Part shown: positions 43,552 through 59,562 of the stretch, one piece after another
How the letters are laid out: every line of letters begins with the position of its first letter
Numbering within the stretch: position 1 is the first letter of the stretch
DNA from: an uncultured Chloroflexia bacterium
GTDB taxonomy: Bacteria > Chloroflexota > Limnocylindria > Limnocylindrales > CSP1-4
Length of the DNA stretch: 64,000 bases
Assembly (NCBI GenBank): GCA_963698595.1
Contig: CAVORL010000006.1
Coordinates: forward strand, 968,900 to 1,032,899
Direction of reading: 5' to 3'
Notes under the pieces: generated by a model
What the model was told of the DNA's origin: nothing
Seen by the model: only the letters and a program-made list of their open reading frames with translations
Database searches by the model: none
Translations under genes and position numbers: made by a program

Positions 43552-44607
43552 ATGCCCGAGACCATGCAGGCGCTTGTCGTCCTGGAGCCCGGTCGTCTCG
43601 AGATCCGCGAGGTGCCGGTCCCCCACCCCGGCCCCAACGAGGTCCTGGCGCGGGTGCGCGCCGTGTCGATCTGCGGCACGGACGCGCACCTGATCCGTGG
43701 CGACTACCCGGGATTCTGGCCCCCCGCGTTCCCGTTCATCCCGGGCCACGAGTGGGCCGGCGAGATCGCGGCGTTGGGCCCCGGCGCCGAGCTGTACGGG
43801 TGGAGGTTGGGCGACCGCGTCGCCGGCACCTCCCACGACGCGTGCGGCGTCTGCCGGGAGTGCGTGGAGGGCCGCTACAACCTCTGCGAGAACTACGGGA
43901 GGGAAGGTCTCCACCGCCAGTACGGGCACAACGTCCAGGGTGCTGACGCCACGTTCGTGGTGCAGGGCGTCAAGACGATCTTCCCCCTGCCGGACGCTCT
44001 CTCCTTCGAGGATGGCGCCCTCATCGATCCCGCCTCAATCGCCCTCCACGTCGCGAATCGTGGCAACGTCACCCCGGGCGACACCGTGGCGATCACGGGC
44101 GCAGGGGCGATCGGGCTCCTGGCCGGCGACGCGGCGCGCATCCGCGGAGCGGGCCGGGTCATCGTCGTCGGCCGCGGCTCGCGCCTGGCGAAGGCCGCGG
44201 CGCTCGGCTTCGAGACCGTCAACACGGCGGCCGGCGACCCCGTGGGGTCCGTCCGGCGCATGACCGGAGGCCTCGGGGCCGACGTCGTCCTCGAGTGCGC
44301 CGGCGTGCCCGAGATGGTGGAGCGGGCGCTCGAGATGCTGCACCGGGGCGGCCGCTGCGCCGCCGTCGGCATTCCCACGGTCGGGGTGGAGATCGCGATG
44401 CAGCGTCTCGTCCTCGATGAGCTGGAGCTGGTGGGCTCGCGCGCATCGGCCGGCGAGATGCGGCGGGTCATGCCCCACGTCGAAGCGGGTCGGATGCGGG
44501 TCAGGGAGATGGTCACCCATCGCTTCGCGCTGGCCGACTATGCGGAGGCGCTGGCCACCTTCAGCGACCGGTCCAGCGGGGCGGTCAAGATCATCGTGGC
44601 GCCCTGA
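43552..44607 (+). CDS. zinc-dependent medium-chain alcohol/polyol dehydrogenase (paralog A)
   Basis: SICGTDAH, GHEWAGEI, the structural-zinc cluster CGVCRECVEGRYNLC and ITGAGAIGL. About 80% identical by eye to the gene at 48243..49289. Confidence 0.9.
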   Translation: MPETMQALVVLEPGRLEIREVPVPHPGPNEVLARVRAVSICGTDAHLIRGDYPGFWPPAFPFIPGHEWAGEIAALGPGAELYGWRLGDRVAGTSHDACGVCRECVEGRYNLCENYGREGLHRQYGHNVQGADATFVVQGVKTIFPLPDALSFEDGALIDPASIALHVANRGNVTPGDTVAITGAGAIGLLAGDAARIRGAGRVIVVGRGSRLAKAAALGFETVNTAAGDPVGSVRRMTGGLGADVVLECAGVPEMVERALEMLHRGGRCAAVGIPTVGVEIAMQRLVLDELELVGSRASAGEMRRVMPHVEAGRMRVREMVTHRFALADYAEALATFSDRSSGAVKIIVAP

Positions 44608-45954: not shown

Positions 45955-48183
45955 TCAGGCCCGCCCGGCCGCCACCTCGTCGGCGCGGCTCCGACCGGCG
46001 AGCAGGATCAGGTCCTCGTGCAGCTCGAACCAGACGCCGTGGTAGCTGTCGACGCGCGGCGAGGCGACGTAGCGATGATCGCCCCCGGCTGCTGCCTCGG
46101 CCGCCCGGTCGAGGCGCCCCAGGTAGCCCGCGAGACGCGGCAGGCCGTCGATGAGCGGCTGCAGCCACGCGCACGCGTCTCCGTGGAGGGCGGCCAGGTC
46201 AGCGAGGACCCTCGCGTCGTAGTCCGGGTCGGTGTGGTCGTTGAAGGCCTGCGCTCCGTTGCTCTCGCGCATCTGCCAGGCCGTGACCGTCGTCTTCATC
46301 CGCTGGTCGAGGGCGATGAACCCGTCGAGGGCGGCTGCGGCACGCTCCGGGCCCCAGGCCAGACGGTCCTCGGCGATCCTCGCGGCGCCAGCCGCCTTGC
46401 CGTCAGCGGTCAGCCGGAACGCGCTCGCGGCGACTTCCGCCATGCCGTCCGCCACGAGGCGGTCCAGCAGCGCGCTCGCATCTTCGGCCGTCGTCAGGAG
46501 CGCCGCCGCCGCGGCTTCGGGCGTCGAGTAGCCCTTCACCGCGAGCGCCCGGAGCATGCTCTCGGTCGTGGCCGTCGTGGCGACTTCGGTTGCCGTGGCG
46601 ACTTCGGTTGCCGTGGCGACCCCGGTTGCCGTGGCGACCCCGGTTGCCGTGGCGACCCCGGTTGCCGTGGCGACCCCGGTTGGTGTGGCGGCGGCCGATG
46701 TCGCTGCGGGCGTCGCAGGGGCGCCGATCTCGATCCCCAGCTCGCGCGCCCAGTCAAGGAGCGTGGCGGCTTCTGGAACGATGGTCGCCGCGCCGACGAC
46801 CGCGCCGGCAAAGATCTCGCCGGTCGCCCCGTCGATCGTGATCGTGTCGCCAACGGCGAACGTCCGGCCGCCGATGACGACCACGCCGTCCGTGACGCGC
46901 ACCGACGCCGCCCCGACGACTGCGGGGATCCCCCAGCCGCGCGCCACAACGGCCGCATGACTCGCCAGGCCGCCGGTGGAGGTCAGGATCCCGACTGCGC
47001 TCGCCATACCGTGGACGTCATCGGGCGACGTCTCGGCCCGAACGAGGATGACCGCACGCCCGGATGCCGTGGCGGAGACGGCTGCGTCGGGCGTCGTGAC
47101 GATCTCACCCGACGCCACGCCGGGGGACGCGGGCAGCCCCGTGGCAACGGTCGGGCCGACGTCTCCACGGTTTACCACCGTCGTCGGCGGGTCTGCCAGC
47201 AGGCCGGCCACGCGTCGCACGGCCTCCTCGCGCGAGAGAGGGAACTCAGGGTCCTCAGCCATGTCGACGGCGATCCGCAGCGCCGCCTGCGGGCTTCGCT
47301 TCCCCACCCGGCACTGGAGCATCCAGAGCCGGCCATGCTCGATCGTGAACTCGATGTCGCAGAGATCGGCGTGGTGGCGCTCCAGGCGCGCGGCATACTC
47401 GCGGAGCTGGCGCCCCACGGCCGGAATCCTCTCGTCCAGAGCGCCGATCGGTTCGGTCTGGTGGGTGCCGGCGACGACATCCTCGCCCTGGGCGTTGAAG
47501 ATCACATCGCCGTAGACGACCGGATCGCCGGTGGCCGGGTTCCGGGTGAACAGGACCCCGGACCCCGACTCAACGCTCCGGTTGCCGAAGACCATGGCCT
47601 GGACGGTGACCGCCGTCCCCAGGTCGCGTGGAATCCCTTCACGTTCGCGATATGCCCGTGCCCGGTCGCTGTTCCACGAGCGGAAGACCGCCTCGACTGC
47701 GGCGCGCAGCTGGTCCCATGGGTTCACGGGAATGCTGTCGCCGCCGACGATGTCGCGAAACGCCGCCTCGAAGCGCAGTTGACAGTTCGCGGCGAACTTC
47801 GGGCTGCCCGACGACGCTGCGAGACCGGCCGTCGTGGCGTCATTGATGCCGAGATTGAGGATCGTGTCCATCATCCCGGGCATCGACACCGGCGCTCCGG
47901 ATCGGACGCTCACGAGAAGTGGGTTGTCCGCGTCCCCGAAGCCGTGGCCAACGAGCTCCTCGATGCGTGCCATGTGCTCGCGGAGCTCCCCGTCGAGCGC
48001 GGCCGGCCATCCTCGAGCGAGATACTCGCTGCAGGCTGCGGTCGAGATCGTGAAGGCGGGCGGCACCGGGAGGCCGAGGTCGAGCGCCATCACGGCGAGG
48101 TTCGCGGCCTTGCCCCCCAGCAGCCGCTTGACCTCCGGCTGGGGAAGGTCGAGGCGCTGGTCGCAGTCGTAGACGTAGGTCAC
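45955..48183 (-). CDS. pyruvate-phosphate-dikinase-like protein lacking the C-terminal TIM barrel; carries a repeat linker and an unknown C-terminal domain
   Basis: The N-terminus GGKAANLAVM...GLPVPPAFTIST is a PPDK_N ATP-grasp. The central swivel domain is TSTGGLASHAAVVARGWGIPAVVG. After ITIDGATGEIFAG comes (TGVATA)n and then about 250 aa with no PEP/pyruvate-binding motifs. Confidence 0.8.
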   Translation of the reverse strand: MTYVYDCDQRLDLPQPEVKRLLGGKAANLAVMALDLGLPVPPAFTISTAACSEYLARGWPAALDGELREHMARIEELVGHGFGDADNPLLVSVRSGAPVSMPGMMDTILNLGINDATTAGLAASSGSPKFAANCQLRFEAAFRDIVGGDSIPVNPWDQLRAAVEAVFRSWNSDRARAYREREGIPRDLGTAVTVQAMVFGNRSVESGSGVLFTRNPATGDPVVYGDVIFNAQGEDVVAGTHQTEPIGALDERIPAVGRQLREYAARLERHHADLCDIEFTIEHGRLWMLQCRVGKRSPQAALRIAVDMAEDPEFPLSREEAVRRVAGLLADPPTTVVNRGDVGPTVATGLPASPGVASGEIVTTPDAAVSATASGRAVILVRAETSPDDVHGMASAVGILTSTGGLASHAAVVARGWGIPAVVGAASVRVTDGVVVIGGRTFAVGDTITIDGATGEIFAGAVVGAATIVPEAATLLDWARELGIEIGAPATPAATSAAATPTGVATATGVATATGVATATGVATATEVATATEVATTATTESMLRALAVKGYSTPEAAAAALLTTAEDASALLDRLVADGMAEVAASAFRLTADGKAAGAARIAEDRLAWGPERAAAALDGFIALDQRMKTTVTAWQMRESNGAQAFNDHTDPDYDARVLADLAALHGDACAWLQPLIDGLPRLAGYLGRLDRAAEAAAGGDHRYVASPRVDSYHGVWFELHEDLILLAGRSRADEVAAGRA
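46571..46696. repeat. 18-bp in-frame tandem repeat (about 7 units) inside the PPDK-like gene
   Basis: The unit GTTGCCGTGGCGACCCCG occurs four times perfectly (46607-46678). Two units carry ...CTTCG and degenerate copies flank them. It encodes TGVATA/TEVATA hexapeptides on the minus strand. Confidence 0.95.
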
Positions 48184-48242: not shown

Positions 48243-49289
48243 TCAGGGCGCGACGATGATCTTGATGGCCCCGCTCGCGGGGTCGTTGAAGGTGGCGAGA
48301 GCCTGCCCGAACTCGGACAGGCTGAAGTGGTGCGTCGTGACGTCACGAACCCGCATCCTGCCTTGCTCCACGAGCGGCATGACGCGCCGCATCTCGCCCG
48401 CGGAGGCCCGCGAGCCGACGAGCTCCAGCTCGTCGAGGACGAGGCGCTGCATCGCGATCTCGACACCGACCGTGGGAATCCCGACGGCGGCACACCGACC
48501 GCCGCGGCGGAGCATGCCCAGCGCCTGCTGGACGGTCTCCGGGACGCCGGCGCACTCGAGGACGACGTCGACCCCGAAGCCGCCGGTCATCTCGCGAACC
48601 GCCGCGACGGGGTCGCCCACCGTCGCGTCGACGGTCTCGAAACCCATCGCCGCCGCCTTGGCGAGGCGCTTCGCGTTGCGCTCGATGAGGATCACCCGGG
48701 CGGCTCCACGGATCAGCGCGGCGTCGCCGCCGAGGAGGCCGATGGCGCCGGCGCCCGTGATCGCGACGGCATCGCCGGGGGCGATGTTGCCGCGGTTGGC
48801 GACGTGGAGGGCGATGGAGGCCGGGTCGATGACCGCCCCGTCGTCGAACGACAGCGCGTCCGGGAGCGGGAAGATCGTCTTGACGCCCTGCACCACGTAG
48901 GTCGCGTCGGCGCCCTGGACGCTGTGGCCGTATTGCTTGTGGAGCCCCTCGCGGCCGTAGTTCTCGCACAGGTTGTAACGGCCCTCGACGCACTTCTGGC
49001 AGACGCCGCACGCGTCGTGCGACGTGCCGGCGACGCGGTCTCCGACCCGCCATCCGTAGCGCTCGGCACCCGGACCGAGCTCCACGATCTCGCCGGCCCA
49101 CTCGTGGCCCGGGATGAACGGGAAGGCCGGGGGCCAGAAGCCCGGGTAGTCGCCCCGCACGATGTGGGCGTCCGTGCCGCAGATGGAGACCGCCCGCACG
49201 CGCGCCAGGACCTCACCCGGTCCGGGTACCGGCACCGGGACTTCCTGGATCTCGAAACGGCTCGGCTCGAGGACGACGAGCGCCTCCAT
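48243..49289 (-). CDS. zinc-dependent medium-chain alcohol/polyol dehydrogenase (paralog B)
   Basis: From ATG 49289 (MEALVVLEP). It has the same motif set as paralog A (SICGTDAH, GHEWAGEI, CGVCQKCVEGRYNLC). It lies in inverted orientation relative to 43552..44607. Confidence 0.9.
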   Translation of the reverse strand: MEALVVLEPSRFEIQEVPVPVPGPGEVLARVRAVSICGTDAHIVRGDYPGFWPPAFPFIPGHEWAGEIVELGPGAERYGWRVGDRVAGTSHDACGVCQKCVEGRYNLCENYGREGLHKQYGHSVQGADATYVVQGVKTIFPLPDALSFDDGAVIDPASIALHVANRGNIAPGDAVAITGAGAIGLLGGDAALIRGAARVILIERNAKRLAKAAAMGFETVDATVGDPVAAVREMTGGFGVDVVLECAGVPETVQQALGMLRRGGRCAAVGIPTVGVEIAMQRLVLDELELVGSRASAGEMRRVMPLVEQGRMRVRDVTTHHFSLSEFGQALATFNDPASGAIKIIVAP

Positions 49290-49312
49290 GGTTGCGGGCA
49301 CGGGAACCTCCT

Positions 49313-50203
49313 TCAGATGACGGCGACCGGGTCGACCATCGACCCGGTCGCGCCACGGATCTTGAGTGGCAGGGCAACGAACAGGAACTCGTAGATCCGC
49401 TCGCGAGCGAGCGCCTCGAGATCCAGGCTTTCCATGATGTAGATCCCGTTCTGGATCAGCAGGAGCGTGTGGACCGGCTGCGGGTTGCCGGTGGGTCCGG
49501 GGTCCGGGGCGGGCTGGACCTCGTACGTCTCCGTGTCCGTGCCGGTCGCGACCACGCCCCGCCCAAGGAGCCAGCGCGCGGCGGAGATGTCGGGTCCTGG
49601 CGTCTTGTGGGCGGCCATCGCCTCGGCGTCGGGCCACAGGCTCATGTATCCGGTTCGGATCGCGACGACGTCACCGGCGCGGACGTCGACACGCTGCGCC
49701 ACGCAGATCGCCTCGAGCTCCGCGGCGTCGATCGGCGAGCCCTTCGGGAGGCAGGGGACCTGCCGGTGGCCCGCGGCGTCGAGGAGGACACCGCGGGTGA
49801 AGAACGGCGGCAGCATGGCCGCATCGAGGTGCGTCGGGCCGAAGTCCGTGAGGTGCTCGTCGGCGTTCCCGCCTCCGTACCAGTGCATGTCGTCGCCCAC
49901 CGTCATGTGGGCCAGCGCGTCGATGTGGGCGCCGGAGTGCGACGTCGCCATGACGTACTCGGCCATGTAGCCGAGCCCAGCGTCGTTCACGGGTCCCCAG
50001 GGCTGGGCGCCGGTGACACGGATCCCTCGCGGGGTCCGGTAGTTGAGGACCTGAAACGGCGGGTGGCCGGGAAAGAGCGGCATCCCCGGGTAGCGGACGG
50101 CCGCCATGGGGATCATCCGCCCCTGGCGGACGAGCCCGGCCGCGCGAACCACCTCGTCGGGTGTCTGCTTGCCGATGGGTCCGATGTCAGATGGCGTGGT
50201 CAT
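49313..50203 (-). CDS. cyclase-family protein (arylformamidase/KynB-like fold)
   Basis: SHSGAHIDALAH fits the HxGTHxDxPxH metal-binding motif of the putative cyclase family. Confidence 0.75.
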   Translation of the reverse strand: MTTPSDIGPIGKQTPDEVVRAAGLVRQGRMIPMAAVRYPGMPLFPGHPPFQVLNYRTPRGIRVTGAQPWGPVNDAGLGYMAEYVMATSHSGAHIDALAHMTVGDDMHWYGGGNADEHLTDFGPTHLDAAMLPPFFTRGVLLDAAGHRQVPCLPKGSPIDAAELEAICVAQRVDVRAGDVVAIRTGYMSLWPDAEAMAAHKTPGPDISAARWLLGRGVVATGTDTETYEVQPAPDPGPTGNPQPVHTLLLIQNGIYIMESLDLEALARERIYEFLFVALPLKIRGATGSMVDPVAVI

Positions 50204-50228: not shown

Positions 50229-52481
50229 TCATGGGCGATCCCGCAGGGCCCGCCAGACGCGTTCCGGCGTGAGGGGCAGATCGCGGATGATCGCGCCCGT
50301 GGCGTCGCGCACGGCCGCGGCGACGGCCGGCGCGACGCACAGCAGCGCCCCCTCGCTCATGCCCTTCGACCCGTAGGGACCCGGCCCATCCTCGTTCTCG
50401 ACGATCTCGCTCACCATCTCGAGGGGCAGGTCCATGCTCGTCGGGATCCGGTAGTCGATCGCCCCCAGGTTCCGGATCCGACCGCCGTCGTCGAAGAGGT
50501 AGTGCTCCATGAGGGTGTGCCCGAGGCCCTGGATCGCCGCGCCCTCGTCCTGCATCCGCACCTGGAGCGGGTTGATCGCCTTGCCGACGTCCGACACCGT
50601 GACGTGGCGCACGAGGGTGATGTCCCCGGTCTCCTCGTCGACTTCCGCCTCGATCGCCGTGCAGTTGAACTCGAAGAACGCCGCCCGGCCCTGGAGCGGA
50701 TGATCGGGCTCCGCCTCCTTGCGCATCTCACCGACCCCGATGATCTCCCCGCCCAGCCGGCCGAGGCCGACCTCGAGGACATCGCGGATCGTGACCTCGC
50801 CCTCCGGGAGCCGCACGACGCCGCGGTCGACGACCACGGACGCCTCGTCGACTTCGTGGACACGGGCAGCCAGCGCCCGAAGCTTGCCCTGGATCTCGCG
50901 GCAGGCTGCCAGCACCGAGTTGCCCATGAGGACGGTCGAGCGGCTGGCCGATGTCTGCTGGTCGTACGGGACGACCGCGGTGTCGCCCATGACGACCGTG
51001 ACCCAGTCCAGCGGGGCGCCGAGCTCCTGGCCGGCAATCTGGGCGAAGACGGTGCGGGCTCCCTGGCCCATGTCGGACGTGCCCGCGTAGACCACGACGC
51101 TCCCGTCACCCAGCAGGCGCACCGTCGAATACGACAGGCCCGTGGTCGGCCCTGACTTGATGCCGATGGCGATCCCACGCCCGCGGCCGGCCGGCGTCGG
51201 AGTCCCCCACCCGATCAGCTCGGCAGCACGCCGAACCGTCTGCTCCCAGTCGCCGTCAGCCGGGGTGTCCCACGGGATGAAGGCCTCCCCCTTGCGGGCG
51301 AGGTTGCGCAGGCGGAGCTCGAGGCGGTCGATCCCGAGCGCCCGAGCGCCCTCGTCGAGGTTCGATTCGACGGCCCAGTTCACCTGCGGGTTGCCGAAGC
51401 CGCGGAAGGCGGTGGACGGCAGCGTGTGCGAGAGGACGGCACGAGCCAGGACGCGGACGTGGGGGATGCGGTACGGGCCCGCCCCCAGGTAGCTCCCCTT
51501 GGCGACGACCCGATCGGCGATGTCCGCGTACGCGCCGATCAGATAGTTCGCCTCGACGTCCTGGAACGCCAGCGTCCCATCTGTCCGGAAGCCGGTCCGG
51601 ACGCGGACCTCCGAGGCAGCCCGGCGCGCCGCCTGGAACGTCTCCTCGAGGGTGAGCACGAGACGCACCGGCCGGTCGGCCCGCAGCGCCATGAGCGCGA
51701 CGAGGGGTTCGTACTTCGCGTGCTGCTTGCCGCCGAAGCCGCCGCCGGGATCGGGCGCGTAGACTCGCACCTTCGACAGCGGCAGCCCGAGGAGCGTGGC
51801 GAGGATCTTCTGGAGCCAGTTCGGATGCTGGATGGAGCTCCAGCAGGCGATCCCGTCGCCGTCGGGCGCCGCCATGAACGCGTGGGGCTCGATCGCGAAG
51901 TGGGTCACGATCGGGAAGTCGTAGCGATGCTCCACGACGAGGTCGGCGGTCGCGGTGTCCACGTCGCCCCAGCCCACGCGGTGCTCGCGCAGGACGTTGC
52001 TGCTCGCGAGCGGATCGCCCGGCCGGAGCAGCGAGTCCTGGACGAGGGGTGCGCCCGGGTCGAGCGCCGCCGCGATGGTCACGACGGCCGGGAGCTCCTC
52101 GTACTCGACCCGCACGAGTCGAGCCCCCTCCTCGGCCGCATCCTTCGTGTCGGCGGCGACGGCGGCGACGGGGTCGCCGTGGTACTTCGTCTCGCCGACC
52201 GCGAGCACGGGCCGGTCCTGGAACTGGGGCCCGAAACGCGGGACGGGCTGCGGCAGGTCGGCGGCGGTCGTGACGAGGCGCACCCCCGGAACCTGCAGGG
52301 CGGCGCTCGTGTCGATGGCGAGGATCCGGCCGCGCGCGACGGGGATCGTGACGAGCTTCGCGTGGAGCTCGTCGGCCAGGTGGATGTCCGCAACGTAGCG
52401 CTGCAGGCCGGTCACGCGGTCGCGGCCCCCGACACGCTGGGGCGACTCGCCCACCCGGGCCGGACGGATCGCGGCACTCAC
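50229..52481 (-). CDS. molybdopterin-dependent hydroxylase large subunit (xanthine dehydrogenase/CoxL family)
   Basis: GTG 52481 overlaps the small-subunit stop (GTGA). It has the blocks GGGFGGK and AFRGFGNPQ, and shows no CODH-type AYxCSFR motif. Confidence 0.88.
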   Translation of the reverse strand: MSAAIRPARVGESPQRVGGRDRVTGLQRYVADIHLADELHAKLVTIPVARGRILAIDTSAALQVPGVRLVTTAADLPQPVPRFGPQFQDRPVLAVGETKYHGDPVAAVAADTKDAAEEGARLVRVEYEELPAVVTIAAALDPGAPLVQDSLLRPGDPLASSNVLREHRVGWGDVDTATADLVVEHRYDFPIVTHFAIEPHAFMAAPDGDGIACWSSIQHPNWLQKILATLLGLPLSKVRVYAPDPGGGFGGKQHAKYEPLVALMALRADRPVRLVLTLEETFQAARRAASEVRVRTGFRTDGTLAFQDVEANYLIGAYADIADRVVAKGSYLGAGPYRIPHVRVLARAVLSHTLPSTAFRGFGNPQVNWAVESNLDEGARALGIDRLELRLRNLARKGEAFIPWDTPADGDWEQTVRRAAELIGWGTPTPAGRGRGIAIGIKSGPTTGLSYSTVRLLGDGSVVVYAGTSDMGQGARTVFAQIAGQELGAPLDWVTVVMGDTAVVPYDQQTSASRSTVLMGNSVLAACREIQGKLRALAARVHEVDEASVVVDRGVVRLPEGEVTIRDVLEVGLGRLGGEIIGVGEMRKEAEPDHPLQGRAAFFEFNCTAIEAEVDEETGDITLVRHVTVSDVGKAINPLQVRMQDEGAAIQGLGHTLMEHYLFDDGGRIRNLGAIDYRIPTSMDLPLEMVSEIVENEDGPGPYGSKGMSEGALLCVAPAVAAAVRDATGAIIRDLPLTPERVWRALRDRP

Positions 52482-52954
52482 CGCCCGCCGTCCTCGGCGA
52501 TCGCGAGGACCGCCTCGCTGATCTGCCCGTAGCAGCCACAGCGGCACAGGTTGCCCGCCAGGCCCTCCTGGACCTCCTGGACCGTCGGGTGGGGGATCCG
52601 CGCGAGCAGGTCGTCCGCCGCCATCACCTGGCCGGGGATGCAGAAACCGCACTGAACGGCGCCCTTGTCGAGGAACGCCTCCTGGAGCGGGCTCAGGCGG
52701 CCCTCGGGTGCCAGGCCCTCCGCGGTTGTCACCTCGCCACCGTCGGCCTCGACCGCGAGGACGAGGCACGAGTCGACGATCCGGCCGTCGAGGCGCACGG
52801 TGCAGGCGCCGCACTCCCCCACGAGACAGCACTCCTTCGTGCCGGTGAGGTCGAGATCGTCGCGCAGGACTTCGAGCAGCGTGTGGTGCGCGGCGACCTC
52901 GAGCGCACGTCGGCGTCCGTTCACCGTCACCTGGATTGGGATCACCTGGGTCAT
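52478..52954 (-). CDS. (2Fe-2S)-binding small subunit (CoxS-like)
   Basis: CLVGECGACTV and the CGFCIPG...CRCGCY cysteine clusters. Confidence 0.9.
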   Translation of the reverse strand: MTQVIPIQVTVNGRRRALEVAAHHTLLEVLRDDLDLTGTKECCLVGECGACTVRLDGRIVDSCLVLAVEADGGEVTTAEGLAPEGRLSPLQEAFLDKGAVQCGFCIPGQVMAADDLLARIPHPTVQEVQEGLAGNLCRCGCYGQISEAVLAIAEDGGR

Positions 52955-52958
52955 CTCG

Positions 52959-53822
52959 TCACTCTCCCGTCGCCAGCCGCTGGATCGCCGTGCGCAGGGC
53001 GCGAACCCCGAGCACGCGGAGCATCGCCAGGCGGTATTCGGGGCTCGCGCGCATGGAGCGCGGCGACGGGCTGGCGGCTGCGAGCATCCGCTCGAGGATC
53101 GGCGCCTTCGCGGAGTCGGGCGCATCCGGGTCGGCCAGCACGCCGCTCTCGTCGACGGCGAGGACAGGCCGCGGCCCAACGCTGCCGTAGGCGAGCCGGG
53201 TGACACCTGCCGTGTCCACGCCGCAGCACAGCGTCACCGAGGCGAGGTCGTGGCCGCGCCGGCGGGTGCGTCGCACGTGGACGGCACCCATGGGACGCCC
53301 GGGCACCGGGAGCTCGATCGCTGTGACGAGCTCCCCTGCCGCCAGCGTGGTCTGACCCGAACGGACGAAGAAGTCCGCAACCGGGATCCGCCGGGTGCCC
53401 ACCGGCCCGACGGCGACCACCTCCGCGCCATAGACGAGCAGCGAGGGCGCGGCGTCGGCGGCGGGGGACGCATTGCACACATTCCCGGCGAGGGTCGCCC
53501 GGTTGCGGATCTGCACGGACCCCACCACGGCGGCCGCCTCGGCCAGCGCCACGAAATGCCGGTGCACGACCGGGTCGGCCGCGATGTCGGTCATCACGGT
53601 CGTGGCGCTGATCACGAGCCGCCCGTCCTCCTCGCGGATCGCGGGCTGCAGCTCCGCGATCCGCTTGAGGTCGACGACAAGCTCCGGCTTCAGCGTCCCG
53701 TCGCGGAGGCGGATGACGAGGTCGGTGCCCCCCGCCAGGACGCGGGCCGCTGCGCCGTGCTCGTGGAGCATGGCGACCGCCTCCGCAAGGGAGGTCGGGC
53801 GGGCGTAGGCAAACGGGTGCAT
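52959..53822 (-). CDS. FAD-binding medium subunit (CoxM-like)
   Basis: LAGGTDL and the ATLAGNVCNASPAAD FAD-binding blocks. Confidence 0.88.
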   Translation of the reverse strand: MHPFAYARPTSLAEAVAMLHEHGAAARVLAGGTDLVIRLRDGTLKPELVVDLKRIAELQPAIREEDGRLVISATTVMTDIAADPVVHRHFVALAEAAAVVGSVQIRNRATLAGNVCNASPAADAAPSLLVYGAEVVAVGPVGTRRIPVADFFVRSGQTTLAAGELVTAIELPVPGRPMGAVHVRRTRRRGHDLASVTLCCGVDTAGVTRLAYGSVGPRPVLAVDESGVLADPDAPDSAKAPILERMLAAASPSPRSMRASPEYRLAMLRVLGVRALRTAIQRLATGE

Positions 53823-53839: not shown

Positions 53840-54727
53840 CTACAGGATCCGCTCGACCTCGTCCAGGAGGACCTGGGGGGTCGCAGCCCGGATGAAGTAG
53901 AAGGGCCGCTCGCAGAAACGGGCCACGAAGTCCGCGCGCCGCCGCCGCAGCTCGTCGTTGTCGACCATTGGCATGACGTGCCCGGGGGCGAGCAGCTCGT
54001 TCGTCAGGAAGTAGTTCTGCAGCGAGTGCAGGAACTGGAACTGCCGCTCGAACGGGATCAGCTCGTTGGTCGCAGGATCGAAGTTGCCGTCGATGGCCGG
54101 GACGATGACGAGGTCGATGTTCGGCTCGCCGTCGAACATCCCCCAGCTGGGCATCTCACCCCAGAACTTCTCGACCCCCCGGTTCGGGGCGGCCTTGTCG
54201 GACCGCTCCGTGCCCTCGGTCCGCTTGCGGAGGAAGGTGTCCACCGAGCCCATGACGGCCCGGCCGCTCTCGTCGATGACTGTCGTCTCCGAGGCCACCT
54301 GAAGGGCGCCCCGGACCCCGGCTTCGATGAGGCCCATCGACTTGCCGTGGTTCGACTCGCCGCCGAGGAAGACCAGCGTCTTCCCCCGGTAGTTGACCGC
54401 CGCGCTGTGAGACGGGTGGAGCCCGACGGCTTCCATGCGCAGCGCGAGGATGGCGACGATGACCTTCTGGATGGGACCTGCCGGCCACGGGCCGGTGAAG
54501 GTGACGACGCGCCCGTCGTAAGTGACCTCCTTCGCTCCATCTCGGTGCCAGACGATGTCGGGCGTCTCCAGCGTGATCTCCGGGGAGATGCGCACGTCGG
54601 CGAGGCGGTAGTTGAGGAAGGTCAGATCGTCGAGAACGTGCTCGCGCGGCTCGCCGCCGTGCACGTCCACTCGGAGGCGGGCCGTCCCGGCCGACATCTC
54701 TTCCGAAAGCTGGAGCTGGTCGTTCAT
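53840..54727 (-). CDS. hypothetical protein with an HPr-kinase-C-like P-loop
   Basis: From ATG 54727. LVFLGGESNHGKSMGLIEAGVRGALQVASETTVI (nt 54338-54364 for the P-loop) parallels the HprK motif G-x-S-G-x-GKS...L-[VI]-[AS]-D-D. Confidence 0.6.
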   Translation of the reverse strand: MNDQLQLSEEMSAGTARLRVDVHGGEPREHVLDDLTFLNYRLADVRISPEITLETPDIVWHRDGAKEVTYDGRVVTFTGPWPAGPIQKVIVAILALRMEAVGLHPSHSAAVNYRGKTLVFLGGESNHGKSMGLIEAGVRGALQVASETTVIDESGRAVMGSVDTFLRKRTEGTERSDKAAPNRGVEKFWGEMPSWGMFDGEPNIDLVIVPAIDGNFDPATNELIPFERQFQFLHSLQNYFLTNELLAPGHVMPMVDNDELRRRRADFVARFCERPFYFIRAATPQVLLDEVERIL

Positions 54728-54764: not shown

Positions 54765-55517
54765 TCATGAGCGTCGATCGCCGAGGGAGGCGGCCGCCGC
54801 GCCCGCCAGCGATGCGACCGTCGGGGACGCATCCGGGTCGATCCCGGAGGCCATGCCGCCGGCGGCCTCCCAGTGGGTGCCCAGCGTGTCCGCGGCCTGT
54901 GCGAAGTGGGCGTGGAAGACCTCGCCGACAAGCGAAGGGTCGCGCCGCCGGAGGGCGTCGAGAACCGGGACGTGCTCGTCCGCGATCCGGCGCCGGTCGG
55001 CGCCGGGCGTGACGATTGTGATGTAGGTGCGCGAGAACGGCTCCAGCGTACGCCAGACCCGTTCCAGGGTTGTGTTGCCAGCCAGCGCGACGACACGGCC
55101 GTGGAAGGCCGCGTCGGCGGTCGCCTCTGCGTACGTGTCGCCGGCGTCGGCCGCTCGCTGCATCTCCGTGACGAACCCCGCGAGCTCGTCGAGGTCGTCG
55201 TCGGTGAGGCGCGGGAGGGCCAGGCGGGCGGCGAGCGTCTCGAGCTCGGCGCGGATCACGAATGCCTCGAGGAGCTCGTCCGCCGACGGGCGGCGGACGC
55301 GAGCTCCCCGGAAGGCGGTGGTCTCCACGACCCCGAGGGCCTCGAGGTCGCGCAGCGCCTCCCGCACGGGTGCCTGGCTCGTGCCGAGCTCCCGGGCCAC
55401 CCGGGTCTCGACGATCCGGGCGCCGGGCGGGTAGCGACCGTCGAGGATCGCCTGCAGGAGACGATCCTTGACCTGGTCGCTGAGGACGCTGCGCGAGATC
55501 GCGGCTTCGCGAATCAT
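54765..55517 (-). CDS. GntR-family transcriptional regulator (FadR/FCD subfamily)
   Basis: From ATG 55517. The N-terminal wHTH is ETRVARELGTSQAPVREALRDLEALGVV, followed by an all-helical FCD-type C-terminal domain. Confidence 0.88.
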   Translation of the reverse strand: MIREAAISRSVLSDQVKDRLLQAILDGRYPPGARIVETRVARELGTSQAPVREALRDLEALGVVETTAFRGARVRRPSADELLEAFVIRAELETLAARLALPRLTDDDLDELAGFVTEMQRAADAGDTYAEATADAAFHGRVVALAGNTTLERVWRTLEPFSRTYITIVTPGADRRRIADEHVPVLDALRRRDPSLVGEVFHAHFAQAADTLGTHWEAAGGMASGIDPDASPTVASLAGAAAASLGDRRS

Positions 55518-55527
55518 GGTCCCGTCG

Positions 55528-57297
55528 CTAGCTTCCGATGATCGCGGGCGCGGGCGCGGTGCTCTCAAGGATCTCCACCACGCCGGCGTTGCCGTCGACG
55601 CGGATCCGATCCCCGGTCTTGATGGTCCACGTGCCGATCGAGGTGCCCACGACCGCCGGGATGCCGTACTCGCGCGCCAGGACGGCCGGGTGCGAGACGG
55701 TGCCGCCGGCGTCGGTCACCACGGCGATGATCTTGCCGTACAGGACCTGCCAGGCCGGGTTGGTCATCTGGCAGACGAGGATCTCGCCTTCCTGAAGGCT
55801 GTCGAACTCAGCCTCGGACGAGACGACGCGGGCGATGCCCTCGACGACGCCCGGCGAGCCGGCGATGCCCGGGACCTTGCCCTCCTCGTGATCGACCGAG
55901 CGGTAGAACTTGTCGGGGAATCCCCACAGGTTCAGGTACGGGAAGGCGAGCTGCGTCGCGGTACAGGTACCCACCCAGTCTTTGGGCTGGTACGCCTCCG
56001 CCTCGGCCCGCTTTGCCCGCGCCGCGGCTGCGATCGCACGCCCGTCCATGCCGGTCGGGTTGCCGACGAAGGCGCGCAGGTCGTTGTAGCGGAACATGAT
56101 GACGTCGTCCGGGGCGTCGAGGACGCCCATCTCCACGAGCTTCTCGCCGAGGGCGATCAGCACGAGGCGGACGTGGGCGTTGGCGCCCTGGTCGATGTAG
56201 AAGTGGTGGTCCGGCGTCAGCGGGGCCATCTTGAGGTTGATCTCGTTGGCGGCGCGCATCTCCTCGAGCGCCTCGCCCTGCAACCCCTCGAGGATCTGCT
56301 TCGCGGCGGCATCGATGTCGGCCTTGAGCGCCGCAACCTTCGACTGGTAGTCGTAGTCCGACGCGTACTGGTCGCGGACGAGCTGGATGATCGGGTTCAT
56401 GTCCTCCCGGAACGACGGGAAGATGAACTCGTGGCTCCAGACCGCGTGCCAGCCGAACTCCTTCTGGTAGGGCACGACCCGCTCGTCGATGAAGCGCCGG
56501 CCGCGCGCGGTCGCCTGGAGGGCGGGCAGGATCACCGCGGATGTGGTGCCGCCGAATGCCGTGGCCAGCTCGGCGTCGACCTTGATCTCCTCCTTCATCT
56601 CCCAGAGCGCACGGATCTTGTCCCAGTTCCGGTCGCTGGCCGAGTTCTGCAGCCGCCCGAGCAGGACCTCGTCGACCTTGCCATGGGTCTTCTCCATGAC
56701 GGCCCGGAGGTTGAGCGTGGCGCTGAGCTGCGCGAAGTTCAGCATCCAGTGGATCTTCCAGTGGCGGTCGTGCATGTCGATGGCGTCTTCGAGGAGGACG
56801 GCCACCTCGGCAAGGCTCAGCTGGTCCTTCTGGTCGAGCATCCCCTCGATGTAGTCGAAGTTCCGCTGCATCTCGGGCACGAACCTGGTGCGCCACCACT
56901 CGACGAACTTATGGCCGTAGACCGGCAGGACGGCGCCGAGGTAGGCCCCGATCTTGCCGGCATACTCCGGGTCCTCGGGCACGATCGGGTTCGTGCGGTA
57001 GTTGTACTCCTGGGTCTCGACGGTCAGGCCGGCCTCGGCGGGGATCGCGGCCGTGTACAGCCAGCCGTTGATGTTCTTGTAGATCCAGTCCGTCGCGAAG
57101 GGAGTGCCGAAGCGGCGGAACATGTGGTCGCAGGAGAGCCACCAGCCGCCGATGTCCTCGTACATCGGGCTGAGCGGCTTGGGGCAGTGCAGGTCGTCGT
57201 AGACCCAGAAGAGCAGCTTCTCGGTTTCGGACGCCCACTCGATCGGGAACGTCTCGTCACCGTGGAACTCGCCGAGGACTTCTTCCTTGAGGGGCAC
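55528..57297 (-). CDS. PEP-utilising-enzyme mobile-domain protein (phenylphosphate synthase alpha/PpsA-like architecture)
   Basis: The C-terminal swivel domain is LVCQMTNPAW...TDAGGTVSHPAVLAREYGIPAVVG. From memory, the N-terminal block LLFWVYDDLHCPKPLSP resembles the substrate-binding part of PpsA-like phosphotransferases. No ATP-grasp domain is present. Confidence 0.7.
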   Translation of the reverse strand: MPLKEEVLGEFHGDETFPIEWASETEKLLFWVYDDLHCPKPLSPMYEDIGGWWLSCDHMFRRFGTPFATDWIYKNINGWLYTAAIPAEAGLTVETQEYNYRTNPIVPEDPEYAGKIGAYLGAVLPVYGHKFVEWWRTRFVPEMQRNFDYIEGMLDQKDQLSLAEVAVLLEDAIDMHDRHWKIHWMLNFAQLSATLNLRAVMEKTHGKVDEVLLGRLQNSASDRNWDKIRALWEMKEEIKVDAELATAFGGTTSAVILPALQATARGRRFIDERVVPYQKEFGWHAVWSHEFIFPSFREDMNPIIQLVRDQYASDYDYQSKVAALKADIDAAAKQILEGLQGEALEEMRAANEINLKMAPLTPDHHFYIDQGANAHVRLVLIALGEKLVEMGVLDAPDDVIMFRYNDLRAFVGNPTGMDGRAIAAAARAKRAEAEAYQPKDWVGTCTATQLAFPYLNLWGFPDKFYRSVDHEEGKVPGIAGSPGVVEGIARVVSSEAEFDSLQEGEILVCQMTNPAWQVLYGKIIAVVTDAGGTVSHPAVLAREYGIPAVVGTSIGTWTIKTGDRIRVDGNAGVVEILESTAPAPAIIGS

Positions 57298-57345: not shown

Positions 57346-58182
57346 TCAGATGGCAGAGGTCGTGCGCGTGATTGCCTTGAAGCGCCGCATGTTCTCCGTG
57401 ATCGCCACCTCCGTCGGGAGCCGCTCCATGCTGGACGCGCCGAAGAAGCCGGCCACGCCTGTCGTGTGTTCGAGGATGTACTGGGCGTCCTCCGGCTCGG
57501 CGATGGGGCCGCCGTGGCAGAGGACGATGGCGTCGGGGTTGACCGCCGCGGCAGCGTCCCGGATCGCCTGGACGAGCTCGGCCGCCTGCACCATGGTGAC
57601 CGCCGTCGTGGCGCCGATGACACCCTTCGTCGTCAGCCCGATGTGGGCCACCACGACGTCGGCCCCTGCCGCGGCCATGTCGCGCGCCTGGTCGGGGTCG
57701 AAGACGTACGGAGTTGTCACGAGACCCGCTTCATGGGCTGCCCGGATCATGTCCACCTCGAGGCTGAAGCCCATGCCGGTCTCCTCGAGGTTCTGCCGGA
57801 ACCGGCCATCGATCAATCCCACGGTCGGGAAGTTCTGGACTCCGGAGAAGCCAACCCGTCGGACCTCCTCGAGGAAGACCGGCATGAGCCGGAACGGGTC
57901 GGTGCCGCAGACGCCCGCCATCACCGGTGTCACCTTCACGACGGGGAGGACCTCACCGGCCATCTCCATCACGATCGCGTTGGCGTCACCGTAGGGCATG
58001 CAGCCGGCCAACGAGCCACGGCCTGCCATGCGGTAGCGTCCCGAGTTGTAGATGATGATGAGGTCGGCGCCGCCCGCCTCCGCGCACTTGGCCGAGAGCC
58101 CAGTCCCGGCCCCGGAGCCCATGATCACGCCGCCCCCATCGAGCGTCCTGCGGAGGCGTGTCAGCACATCGTCCCTGTTCAT
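57346..58182 (-). CDS. PEP-hydrolase-like TIM-barrel protein (Tm-1 C-terminal-domain family)
   Basis: From ATG 58182. [47 protein letters not shown] is the hallmark N-terminal block of this family. The start overlaps the upstream stop (ATGA). Confidence 0.8.
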
Positions 58183-59429
58183 GCGCGCCCTCCTGCGTTC
58201 GCCGTCTGCCCCGTGGCCCACGCACGGTAATGCGCGTCGAGCCGCTCGGCCATCGCCGTCGCGAAGTCCGGGTCGTTGATGTCGGTTGCCATCACGACGA
58301 CCTCGACATCCGGCCGAAGCCCGGACCGCAGCTCCCGGATGAGGGCTGCATCGGCGGCCGGGTCGTGGAACGGGGCGCCGGGGACGTCAATCATCGAGAC
58401 CCCGCCGAGCGGGATGAAGACGCTCAGGGGTCCCGTCGCCTGGTTCAGCTTGCGGGCCATGATCCGCCCCAGCTCGGCGCACTCCTCCTCCGTCGTCCGC
58501 ATGAGCGTAACCGTCGCGTTGTGGACATAGAGGTTGCGGCCCCTGAACTCCGGGGGGACCGTCTCCTCGGGCCCGAAGTTGCACATGTCGAGGGCCCCGA
58601 GCGAGACGACCTGGGGGATGCCGAGGGAGCCCGCCATCTCGAGCCGTTCGGGTCCTGCGGAGAGGACCCCTCCGACCAGCTCGTCCACGAGCTCGGTGGT
58701 CGTGATGTCGAGCGACCCCGTGATGAAGCCGGCCTGCATGAGGGCTTCCATGGACCTCCCGCCGGAGCCCGTGGCGTGGAAGACGAGGACCTCGTAGCCG
58801 TGCGCTTCCAGCCACTCCCGGGCCACCGTGACGCTCGGGGTCGTCACCCCGAACATCGTGGCCCCGATGAGCGGTTTCGGCGGGATCTTCGAGACGAACG
58901 ACGCCGACGCCCTCGCCATCCCGGCGATCCCGACGGCCGCGTTGGTGAGGATCCTTTCCGAGAGGACGTTGATGCCGGCGATATCGACGACGGAGTACAT
59001 CATCGCGATATCGGAGGTACCGACGTAGGGGCGGGTGTCCCCGGAACCCATCGTCGAGACGATCATCTTGGGGACGCCGACCGGCAGGGCCTGCATCGCC
59101 GCGCAGACGATCGACGAGCCGCCCGACCCGCCCACGCCGAGGATCCCGTCGAGCTTGCCCTCCGCGTGGAGGCGCTTGACGATCTCGGTCGCGCCACGGC
59201 TCATGGCGAGGACGCCCGGCCCGCGGTCGCCGGCCGCGGCCAGGGCGGCGCGGCTCTCGCCGGCCGCCCCCGCGACCTCGTCGGCGGTGATGTCGCCCGG
59301 CGACGGGTCGCTCAGCACGCCCGCGTCGACGAGGATCACGTCACATCCGGTTTCGCGGACCCGATCGCGCAGGAACTCGTACTCGCTGCCCTTCGTGTCG
59401 AGGGTCCCGAGGAGCACGACGCTCGTCAT
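58179..59429 (-). CDS. UPF0261-family protein (Tm-1 N-terminal-domain family, nucleotide binding)
   Basis: From ATG 59429. It has [28 protein letters not shown] and MFGVTTP blocks. It is the first gene of the long minus-strand gene train. Confidence 0.8.
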
Positions 59430-59515
59430 GCGTGCGACCTCCTGCGACTCCGCCCGGGCGCCGGTGTGGGTGTGGGGGTTCCCTGGCGGCCGCAATGGGA
59501 GCCCGCATACACTCG

Positions 59516-59562
59516 ATAATCGATTACCGATAACGATAGGAACCGGCACCCGGTCCCGTCAA
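59516..59562 (-). promoter_or_regulatory. sigma70-like promoter (TTGACG-18-TATCGT, minus strand) followed by an AT-rich operator
   Basis: -35 is the complement of 59557-59562 and -10 the complement of 59533-59538. The operator 12-mer at 59516-59527 (ATAATCGATTAC, 11/12) lies 87 bp upstream of the UPF0261 gene start. Confidence 0.6.

Follow-up and report, generated by a model that had tools for sequence, protein, structure and literature searches.

A natural fusion of a VadK-like, barrel-less dikinase core to an Rv1126c-like module, encoded beside molybdenum hydroxylase genes in a Chloroflexota genome

The protein considered here is the 742-residue product of a gene at 45955..48183 on the minus strand of a 64,000-nucleotide stretch of DNA from an uncultured Chloroflexia bacterium (assembly GCA_963698595.1, contig CAVORL010000006.1), the whole of which is called the window below. 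Its closest described relatives belong to two systems. The first is VadK (Rv1127c, annotated PpdK) of Mycobacterium tuberculosis, a pyruvate phosphate dikinase (PPDK) that has no barrel (Pascoe et al., EMBO Rep 2026, PMC13400623). VadK autophosphorylates on His422 with ATP and Mg, pulls down methylcitrate synthase and methylcitrate dehydratase, and is essential for virulence and for growth of M. tuberculosis on cholesterol and propionate, while deletion of vadK leaves transcription of the linked pathway unchanged (PMC13400623). Its 'operonic partner' Rv1126c raises the solubility of VadK on co-expression and is separated from it only by a wash with 2 M NaCl; the paper uses Rv1126c solely as a solubility aid and does not describe its fold, its family or any fusions (PMC13400623). 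The second system comprises HpeHI, CreHI, PpsAB and AcvAB, two-component small-molecule dikinases that are split relatives of rifampin phosphotransferase (RPH) and in which an ATP-grasp subunit charges the swivel histidine of a substrate subunit (PMC12167813). In addition, orf9 ('PPDK') and orf10 ('PEP-utilizing protein', PEP being phosphoenolpyruvate) of the 3hpd cluster of Ensifer adhaerens HP1 are required for the molybdenum hydroxylase HpdA to act on 3-hydroxypyridine (bioRxiv 10.1101/2020.01.08.898148). The barrel-less PPDK kinase and the split aromatic dikinases are therefore already known, and in the literature searched no publication deals with the Rv1126c family, with its fold or with a fusion of it to the kinase; the few papers that name Rv1126c leave it uncharacterised.

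Judged from its sequence, the window protein joins a VadK-like core to an Rv1126c-like module in a natural fusion. The parts of the gene are as follows.

45955..48183, minus strand: whole gene, 742-residue fusion of a barrel-less PPDK core and an Rv1126c-like module (open reading frame, Pfam, NCBIfam)
47164..48183, minus strand: ATP-grasp nucleotide-binding domain, approximately residues 1-340, with the motifs GGKAANL and SVRSGAPVSMPGMMDT (PF01326, PPDK_N, E 3.5e-46)
46717..47151, minus strand: phosphohistidine swivel domain, approximately residues 345-489 (PF00391, PEP-utilizers, E 3.3e-20, residues 378-455)
46582..46716, minus strand: disordered Ala/Thr/Pro/Gly linker, residues 490-534, 45 residues (Tandem Repeats Finder, TRF; predicted local distance difference test score, pLDDT, <50)
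46354..46581, minus strand: winged-helix subdomain, residues 535-610 (PDB profile of the DtxR/MntR/MarR winged helix-turn-helix, wHTH; Foldseek)
45958..46353, minus strand: helical subdomain with a beta-hairpin, residues 611-742 (alignments, conservation, AlphaFold2, AF2)

The reading frame is uninterrupted from a GTG start and the N-terminus of its product, VTYVYDCD..., agrees with the homologue consensus MxxVxDxD. All the PPDK motifs quoted in the initial annotation were found in the translation, as was the switch to a repeat, which TRF reports in the linker. The ATP-grasp part is 42-48% identical to canonical and short PPDKs and was modelled with pLDDT >90. The catalytic histidine, His409 (codon 46957-46959, minus strand), lies in the motif GGLASH409AAVVARG and is kept in at least 90% of 40 homologues. 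The PEP/pyruvate barrel is another matter. A Pfam scan of the 742-residue protein gave no match to PEP-utilizers_C (PF02896), the score of 521 against TIGR01828 (PPDK) was below the cut-off of 843 with the model matched only to approximately position 535 of 865, and alignments with PPDK chains in the PDB were restricted to residues 137-497 of the fusion. Pfam, TIGR01828 and the PDB alignments thus agree with the earlier claim that the ATP-grasp and swivel-histidine half has been kept and the barrel lost, and the conservation of motifs predicts that the barrel-less core is of the autophosphorylating type.

Three genes of the genome bear PPDK_N, namely the canonical PPDK, the fusion and a 922-residue RPH/PpsA-like protein with a swivel of its own; a survey of these PPDK_N-bearing genes revealed no stand-alone ATP-grasp protein of the HpeI type. 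The canonical full-length PPDK is a 936-residue open frame (G000:C6:1060979-1062667, locus L081) approximately 28 kb past the end of the window. Since the genome has this separate canonical PPDK, the fusion is not the organism's pyruvate/PEP enzyme. The model NF004531 was tried as a marker for 'short PPDK' proteins and dropped, because the canonical PPDK of the same genome (539) outscores the fusion (492.9; cut-off 456).

An exhaustive HMMER search with the 208 residues of the module as query recovered a family of 1,425 cluster representatives, 837 of them at E <= 1e-10. Many members are free-standing proteins of approximately 200-210 residues, and others form the C-terminal part of proteins of 700-800 residues. 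Scans of the window piece and 57 family members against Pfam and NCBIfam found no model for the module and gave only sub-threshold wHTH matches. The free-standing mycobacterial members have 201 residues and are named 'MarR family transcriptional regulator' or 'hypothetical' by NCBI. In Mycobacterium basiliense there is a 4-bp overlap between the gene for such a 201-residue protein and the stop of a barrel-less PPDK (PPDK_N and PEP-utilizers), and the window module aligns with this protein from end to end (35% identity, E 2e-32). Further along the M. basiliense locus come a WS_DGAT_C-like gene, hydrolases, 6PGD and G6PD, the same order as surrounds Rv1127c-Rv1126c on the map of strain H37Rv (...ephC, bpoB, gnd2, zwf1).

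The survey of this architecture proposed at the outset showed the fusion to be widespread and the free-standing form of its module to adjoin barrel-less PPDKs. With residues 535-742 as query, at least 1,376 proteins of approximately 710-725 residues were recovered in which PPDK_N and PEP-utilizers are followed by this C-terminal region, nearly all of them named 'pyruvate, orthophosphate dikinase'. The suggestion that a novel domain had replaced the barrel can thus be retained for the absence of the barrel; what follows the core is the usually separate partner, of the Rv1126c family, joined to it. Likewise, the C-terminal region does contain nothing of the PPDK barrel, although its size is 208 residues (535-742) and not the 250 or so first estimated. 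Since 2 M NaCl is needed to part Rv1126c from VadK, the two halves fused in the window form a physical complex in M. tuberculosis. The fusion can be treated as a Rosetta stone, with more than 1,000 environmental proteins and independent fusions, and this argues that the Rv1126c-type module is integral to these kinases.

The module was modelled with AF2 from a 57-sequence alignment (pLDDT 97, predicted template modelling score, pTM, 0.92). In the numbering of the piece the model has a winged helix (6-57), two long helices, a beta-hairpin (104-113) and a C-terminal part of 4-5 helices. The winged helix alone was matched in a PDB profile search, to DtxR/MntR/MarR-type domains with a best E of 3.8e-5. 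Foldseek found nothing in the PDB at E <= 0.001 with the module, its best matches being IdeR and DtxR over the first 77 residues only (rmsd 1.7-2.2 Å). The winged-helix-like character first proposed for the C-terminus is therefore supported by both searches, and the helical subdomain gave no Pfam, NCBIfam, PDB-profile or Foldseek match to a known family or fold. Two other candidates were rejected. A DtxR/MntR-like metal-sensor layout for the whole module was ruled out by a global superposition rmsd of 11-14 Å, and a diverged TIM barrel, the outcome that would have undone the initial annotation, was ruled out since AF2 confidently models a wHTH followed by a helical bundle with a single hairpin, and PF02896 gave no signal.

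Within the module the winged helix is the least conserved stretch (mean 0.42) and piece residues 171-200 are the most conserved (0.71). W636, Q637, N648, H650, G701, H715, W718, E720 and R733 are invariant and D649, D652, Y655, D656, R683, Y687, R690, D712, S713, H722 and E723 are near-invariant (>=89%), giving the motifs W-Q, N-D-H-x-D-x-x-Y-D, R..Y..R, D-S-Y-H and W-F-E-L-H-E. Such a pattern looks like that of a ligand, catalytic or interface pocket. The invariant residues are specific, testable targets both for the tuberculosis virulence kinase and for a catabolic kinase system.

The fusion lies in a co-directional train of minus-strand genes that runs UPF0261, PEP-hydrolase-like barrel, 589-residue swivel protein, GntR/FCD, unannotated protein, CoxM, CoxL, cyclase, Zn-dehydrogenase, fusion and short-chain dehydrogenase/reductase (SDR). 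The members needed for the argument are listed here.

55528..57297, minus strand: 589-residue HpeH/RPH-like protein, the inferred partner (PF00391, E 1e-21)
54765..55568, minus strand: GntR/FCD transcriptional regulator (Pfam GntR and FCD)
53840..54727, minus strand: conserved unannotated 295-residue protein, syntenic with the PEP-utilizer and CoxM (in 19 of 80 loci)
52959..53822, minus strand: CoxM-like FAD subunit (Pfam, NCBIfam; in 35 of 80 loci)
50229..52832, minus strand: CoxL-like molybdenum hydroxylase subunit (Pfam, NCBIfam; in 44 of 80 loci)

A small Fe-S subunit is presumably encoded between or overlapping the CoxL and CoxM genes. The 589-residue protein matches PF00391 only, as a C-terminal swivel, and has no ATP-grasp domain; its residues 160-578 resemble the substrate-binding and swivel part of RedH, PigC and RPH.

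The loci counted in this list are 80 related genomic loci from Chloroflexota/Limnocylindria, Acidimicrobiia, Dormibacterota and others. Within ±6 kb, besides the genes already counted, they contain a metallo-beta-lactamase in 40 cases, an alcohol dehydrogenase in 27, a cyclase in 21, UPF0261 in 10 and a PEP-utilizer in 8. Gene orders are shuffled but the same genes recur, and the PEP-utilizer gene adjoins the fusion in L004, L026, L046, L048, L049, L058 and L060. When 301 genomes sampled evenly across the phylum were surveyed, the module was found in 10, and its gene is accessory with a patchy distribution. Among genomes of the class an orthologue of the 589-residue protein (>=65% identity) was present in 9/9 module-positive and 0/18 module-negative genomes and lay 2-9 kb from the fusion where both share a contig. 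The link first suggested to the swivel protein at 55528-57297, encoded in the same train, is strongly backed by this co-occurrence and synteny.

The same components occur as separate genes elsewhere. A Diaphorobacter plasmid carries, in this order, DUF7065, PEP-utilizer (572 residues), a 206-residue 'hypothetical' protein and a short PPDK (506 residues), and the 206-residue protein is a member of the module family (hhalign probability 100%, E 6.5e-59). In Gordonia westfalica DUF7065, module, short PPDK and PEP-utilizer (Rph_4th) follow one another, all translationally coupled. An M. avium plasmid carries a short PPDK and a 201-residue module (tblastn match) with a PEP-utilizer and a 296-residue hypothetical protein further along. 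In the plasmid collection as a whole the module is next to a short PPDK in at least 9 of 18 module-carrying records; the same collection searched with the module gave no Ensifer match. Finally, the 1,049-residue metagenomic protein P0216 joins an HpeH-like C-terminal half with its swivel histidine, a PPDK core with its swivel histidine, and the module. This triple fusion is weak but supportive evidence, being a single sequence whose N-terminus may be missing or which may stem from the merging of gene calls.

Not every barrel-less PPDK has a partner of this kind, as two Rhodococcus cases indicate. A six-frame HMM search found no module within 8 kb of the short PPDK of R. opacus (L089, pROB02), and no module is annotated beside that of R. 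pyridinivorans (L099, pA). Both of these barrel-less PPDKs lie inside clusters of P450, aldehyde dehydrogenase and alcohol dehydrogenase genes; L089 also has genes for a PEP-utilizing enzyme and a 'phosphotransferase' nearby and looks like a cre-type 4-cresol cluster.

A maximum-likelihood (ML) tree of the core, covering the first 490 or so residues, grouped the window core with the R. opacus short PPDK and the majority of the fused proteins in a 33-member clade (100/99). A mycobacterial VadK-type clade (98/94) holds the short PPDKs of M. basiliense and M. avium, split partnered proteins and the fused P0155 and P0263. There is a third, long-branched group of fused proteins, and five canonical PPDKs are unresolved between the groups. 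As fused forms stand in at least two clades, fusion and fission have occurred more than once. The barrel may have been lost once or several times, either of which would fit the ML tree. By architecture and partner the window protein is VadK-like, but on this tree it is not an orthologue of Rv1127c.

These results can be accommodated if the fusion serves as the ATP-charging part of a multi-protein small-molecule dikinase with three components, working in a molybdenum hydroxylase operon, which we regard as the probable explanation though with considerable reserve. In such a scheme ATP would pyrophosphorylate or phosphorylate His409 on the ATP-grasp domain and the swivel domain would deliver the phosphoryl group to a site that the Rv1126c-like module either forms itself or recruits, this module acting as a docking or acceptor element in place of the lost TIM barrel. 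The phosphoryl group would then pass to the swivel histidine of the 589-residue protein, which would phosphorylate a hydroxylated aromatic or N-heteroaromatic substrate handled by the molybdenum hydroxylase. The scheme is put forward because of the co-occurrence of the two genes, the lack of a stand-alone HpeI-type ATP-grasp among the genome's PPDK_N-bearing genes, the split gene sets and P0216, and because of the genetic precedent in Ensifer and the split-dikinase model for HpeHI. With the pair tied to HpeH-like phosphocarriers and molybdenum hydroxylases, an uncharacterised three-component dikinase for (N-hetero)aromatic breakdown is suggested.

Several observations sit badly with this scheme. 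The fusion keeps its own swivel histidine, unlike HpeI, CreI and PpsB, so that a second swivel protein makes the phosphoryl route ambiguous. The mycobacterial VadK-type locus of M. basiliense and a terpene/P450 cluster of Amycolatopsis contain the pair without a nearby HpeH-like gene, and the pair must therefore have a function independent of that partner. The window core and mycobacterial VadK fall in different clades. Furthermore, in the full-length AF2 model (pLDDT 90, pTM 0.66) the linker is disordered and the position of the module relative to the core is not fixed.

The first of the alternatives makes use of the pairs that lack an HpeH-like gene. In it the fusion is a self-contained kinase whose helical subdomain is the acceptor-binding catalytic domain, like the rifampin-binding domain of RPH, and the 589-residue protein is a distinct enzyme acting in that same pathway. 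The conserved polar and aromatic residues are of the sort expected where a ligand is bound or catalysis takes place, a swivel mechanism would be well served by a flexible tether, and the short PPDK and module are found without an HpeH-like gene in mycobacteria and Amycolatopsis. Against this, the helical subdomain bears no recognisable likeness to any known substrate-binding or phosphotransfer fold, VadK/Rv1126c has no known substrate, and the 589-residue protein, which otherwise has no ATP module in the genome, is strictly co-inherited with the fusion. We therefore consider a self-contained kinase unlikely, while giving it some weight.

A related and equally tentative idea, for which we see only a modest chance, concerns the helical subdomain whichever partner is served. 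It may be a phosphoryl-acceptor or relay domain in which His650, His715 and His722 with the Asp/Glu cluster form the site, fed by the PPDK-type swivel histidine and passing phosphate onward. If this were true, the onward target would be the swivel histidine of the HpeH-like protein here and another target in mycobacteria. There would then be a new three-step histidine-based phosphorelay on a PPDK chassis, and the missing acceptor of VadK would have a name.

In the second alternative the fusion is a protein-directed regulatory histidine kinase, as has been proposed for VadK, with the module as a target-recognition or stabilising subunit. VadK autophosphorylates, pulls down the methylcitrate enzymes and does not act via transcription, and Rv1126c binds VadK in an architecture common to the window protein. 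However, the window core belongs to another clade than mycobacterial VadK and no methylcitrate-cycle genes (prpC, prpD or prpR) were present among the neighbouring window ORFs scanned. A gene that is accessory and patchy, found in 10/301 genomes, and that occurs in catabolic islands and on plasmids points to a pathway enzyme more than to a central regulator. We consider this alternative improbable.

The initial annotation had also raised a regulatory, DNA-binding-like role for the C-terminus. The corresponding explanation, a transcription factor controlled by phosphorylation with the winged helix as its DNA-binding part and the kinase core as its switch, draws on the fold, which is like that of DtxR, IdeR, MntR and MarR, and on the NCBI label 'MarR family transcriptional regulator' carried by many free-standing members. 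Nevertheless, the Pfam wHTH matches are all below their gathering thresholds: the module scores 16.9 bits against MarR_2 (threshold 27), and in a top-25 tally for the 57 members all wHTH-family matches were weak (best per-member E 3.3e-06) and most members had none. In helix 3, which would be the part that reads DNA, the net charge averages -1.7 and Lys/Arg 0.7; for the whole module the average charge is -8. The wHTH is the least conserved part. The module thus has the winged-helix fold in common with the DtxR/IdeR/MntR/MarR regulators over its first 75 residues or so and differs from DtxR and MntR in that helix 3 is acidic and unconserved and the helical subdomain cannot be superposed on their dimerisation domains. 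Given this acidity, the GntR/FCD regulator already present in the train and the lack of a transcriptional effect of the vadK deletion on the linked pathway, DNA binding by the module is disfavoured and a transcription factor is very improbable.

There remains the question of whether the junction is genuine, since it sits in a tandem repeat, which is a typical site of slippage. TRF found 6.4 copies of an 18-bp unit at 46576-46690, 95% matching and in frame, that encode (TGVATA)n. The linkers of homologues are hypervariable, approximately 15-95 residues long and rich in Ala, Pro, Gly, Thr and Glu, some of them with other repeats. The repeat of the window is lineage-specific, its nearest homologue (82% identical) having a non-repetitive junction of 52 residues and another relative carrying (EAAAG)n, a repeat unrelated to it. 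Linkers thus seem to have been expanded by slippage repeatedly, and with a unit of 18 bp changes in copy number keep the frame. Both halves are present in 77 of the 80 related loci, in a single frame with no stop in 73 of the 77, and a 251-nucleotide soil-metagenome contig of a related strain covers part of the repeat with 0 indels, although one contig is not decisive. With the ORF unbroken, 73/77 loci in frame and at least 1,376 proteins alike, an assembly artefact or a pseudogene made by a frameshift in the repeat can be dismissed.

Some features of these loci stand apart from the argument above. In Proteobacteria and Actinomycetes the split systems repeatedly include, as their fourth gene, one for a DUF7065/DUF7064 protein (L090 4673-5587, L092 6091-6990 and probably L098 11300-12190). 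In the clade of the window an unrelated unannotated protein, that at 53840-54727, stands at the equivalent place. It has no match in Pfam, NCBIfam or the PDB, and its identification with the DUF7065 protein was ruled out because BLASTP found no similarity. In Amycolatopsis japonica (L091 3543-8942) the Rv1126c-like gene and a 432-residue short PPDK come immediately after a terpene synthase and two P450 genes; this cluster is downstream of genes of the DXP pathway, which hints at a use of the pair in terpenoid biosynthesis.

At the far end of the window's train are the UPF0261 protein (58179-59549, minus strand; NF002674, 552 bits) and then the PEP-hydrolase-like barrel (57346-58221, minus strand), together a split form of the Tm-1 architecture. 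UPF0261 was recently shown to be an aromatic kinase family (MarK, PMC12624787), and the operon may therefore hold two distinct systems for phosphorylating aromatics. Two closely related Zn-dehydrogenase paralogues, at 43552-44607 (plus strand) and 48243-49637 (minus strand), are inverted with respect to each other and flank the fusion, SDR and OsmC genes; both cross-match the same genes in related loci. The 464-residue ORF at 48243-49637 is probably some 115 codons too long because its Pfam domains begin at residue 139.

Compared with canonical PPDK (EC 2.7.9.1; 1DIK, 1KBL), the fusion is alike in its first 480 residues or so (E 1e-123) and in the swivel-histidine mechanism, but canonical PPDK has the PEP/pyruvate TIM barrel that the fusion is without, and the regulatory Thr two residues before the catalytic histidine is Ala in the fusion (GGLASH). 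VadK has the same ATP-grasp and swivel-histidine motifs and no barrel, His409 being equivalent to His422. VadK and Rv1126c are two proteins whereas the window has one polypeptide with a disordered repeat linker, and the context of VadK is prpR-prpDC whereas that of the fusion is a molybdenum hydroxylase/aromatic-kinase operon. An HpeH-like swivel protein co-occurs with the fusion and was not found near the mycobacterial VadK-type locus examined. The fused and split carriers offer non-pathogenic models for the function of VadK/Rv1126c.

The 3hpd cluster of Ensifer, likened here by annotation names only, also ties a PPDK-like protein and a PEP-utilizer genetically to a molybdenum hydroxylase of several subunits and includes a GntR regulator. 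In the split dikinases, as in the window, ATP-grasp and substrate-binding/swivel proteins are encoded together in aromatic catabolic clusters, and the 589-residue protein corresponds to the HpeH/CreH/PpsA-type half. The ATP subunit of the split enzymes (HpeI, CreI, PpsB) is an RPH-type ATP-grasp without a swivel, whereas the fusion is of the PPDK type with its own swivel histidine. The window system thus has two swivel domains and a third component, the Rv1126c-like module, and it is linked to a molybdenum hydroxylase where the split dikinases are linked to P450 or carboxylase steps.

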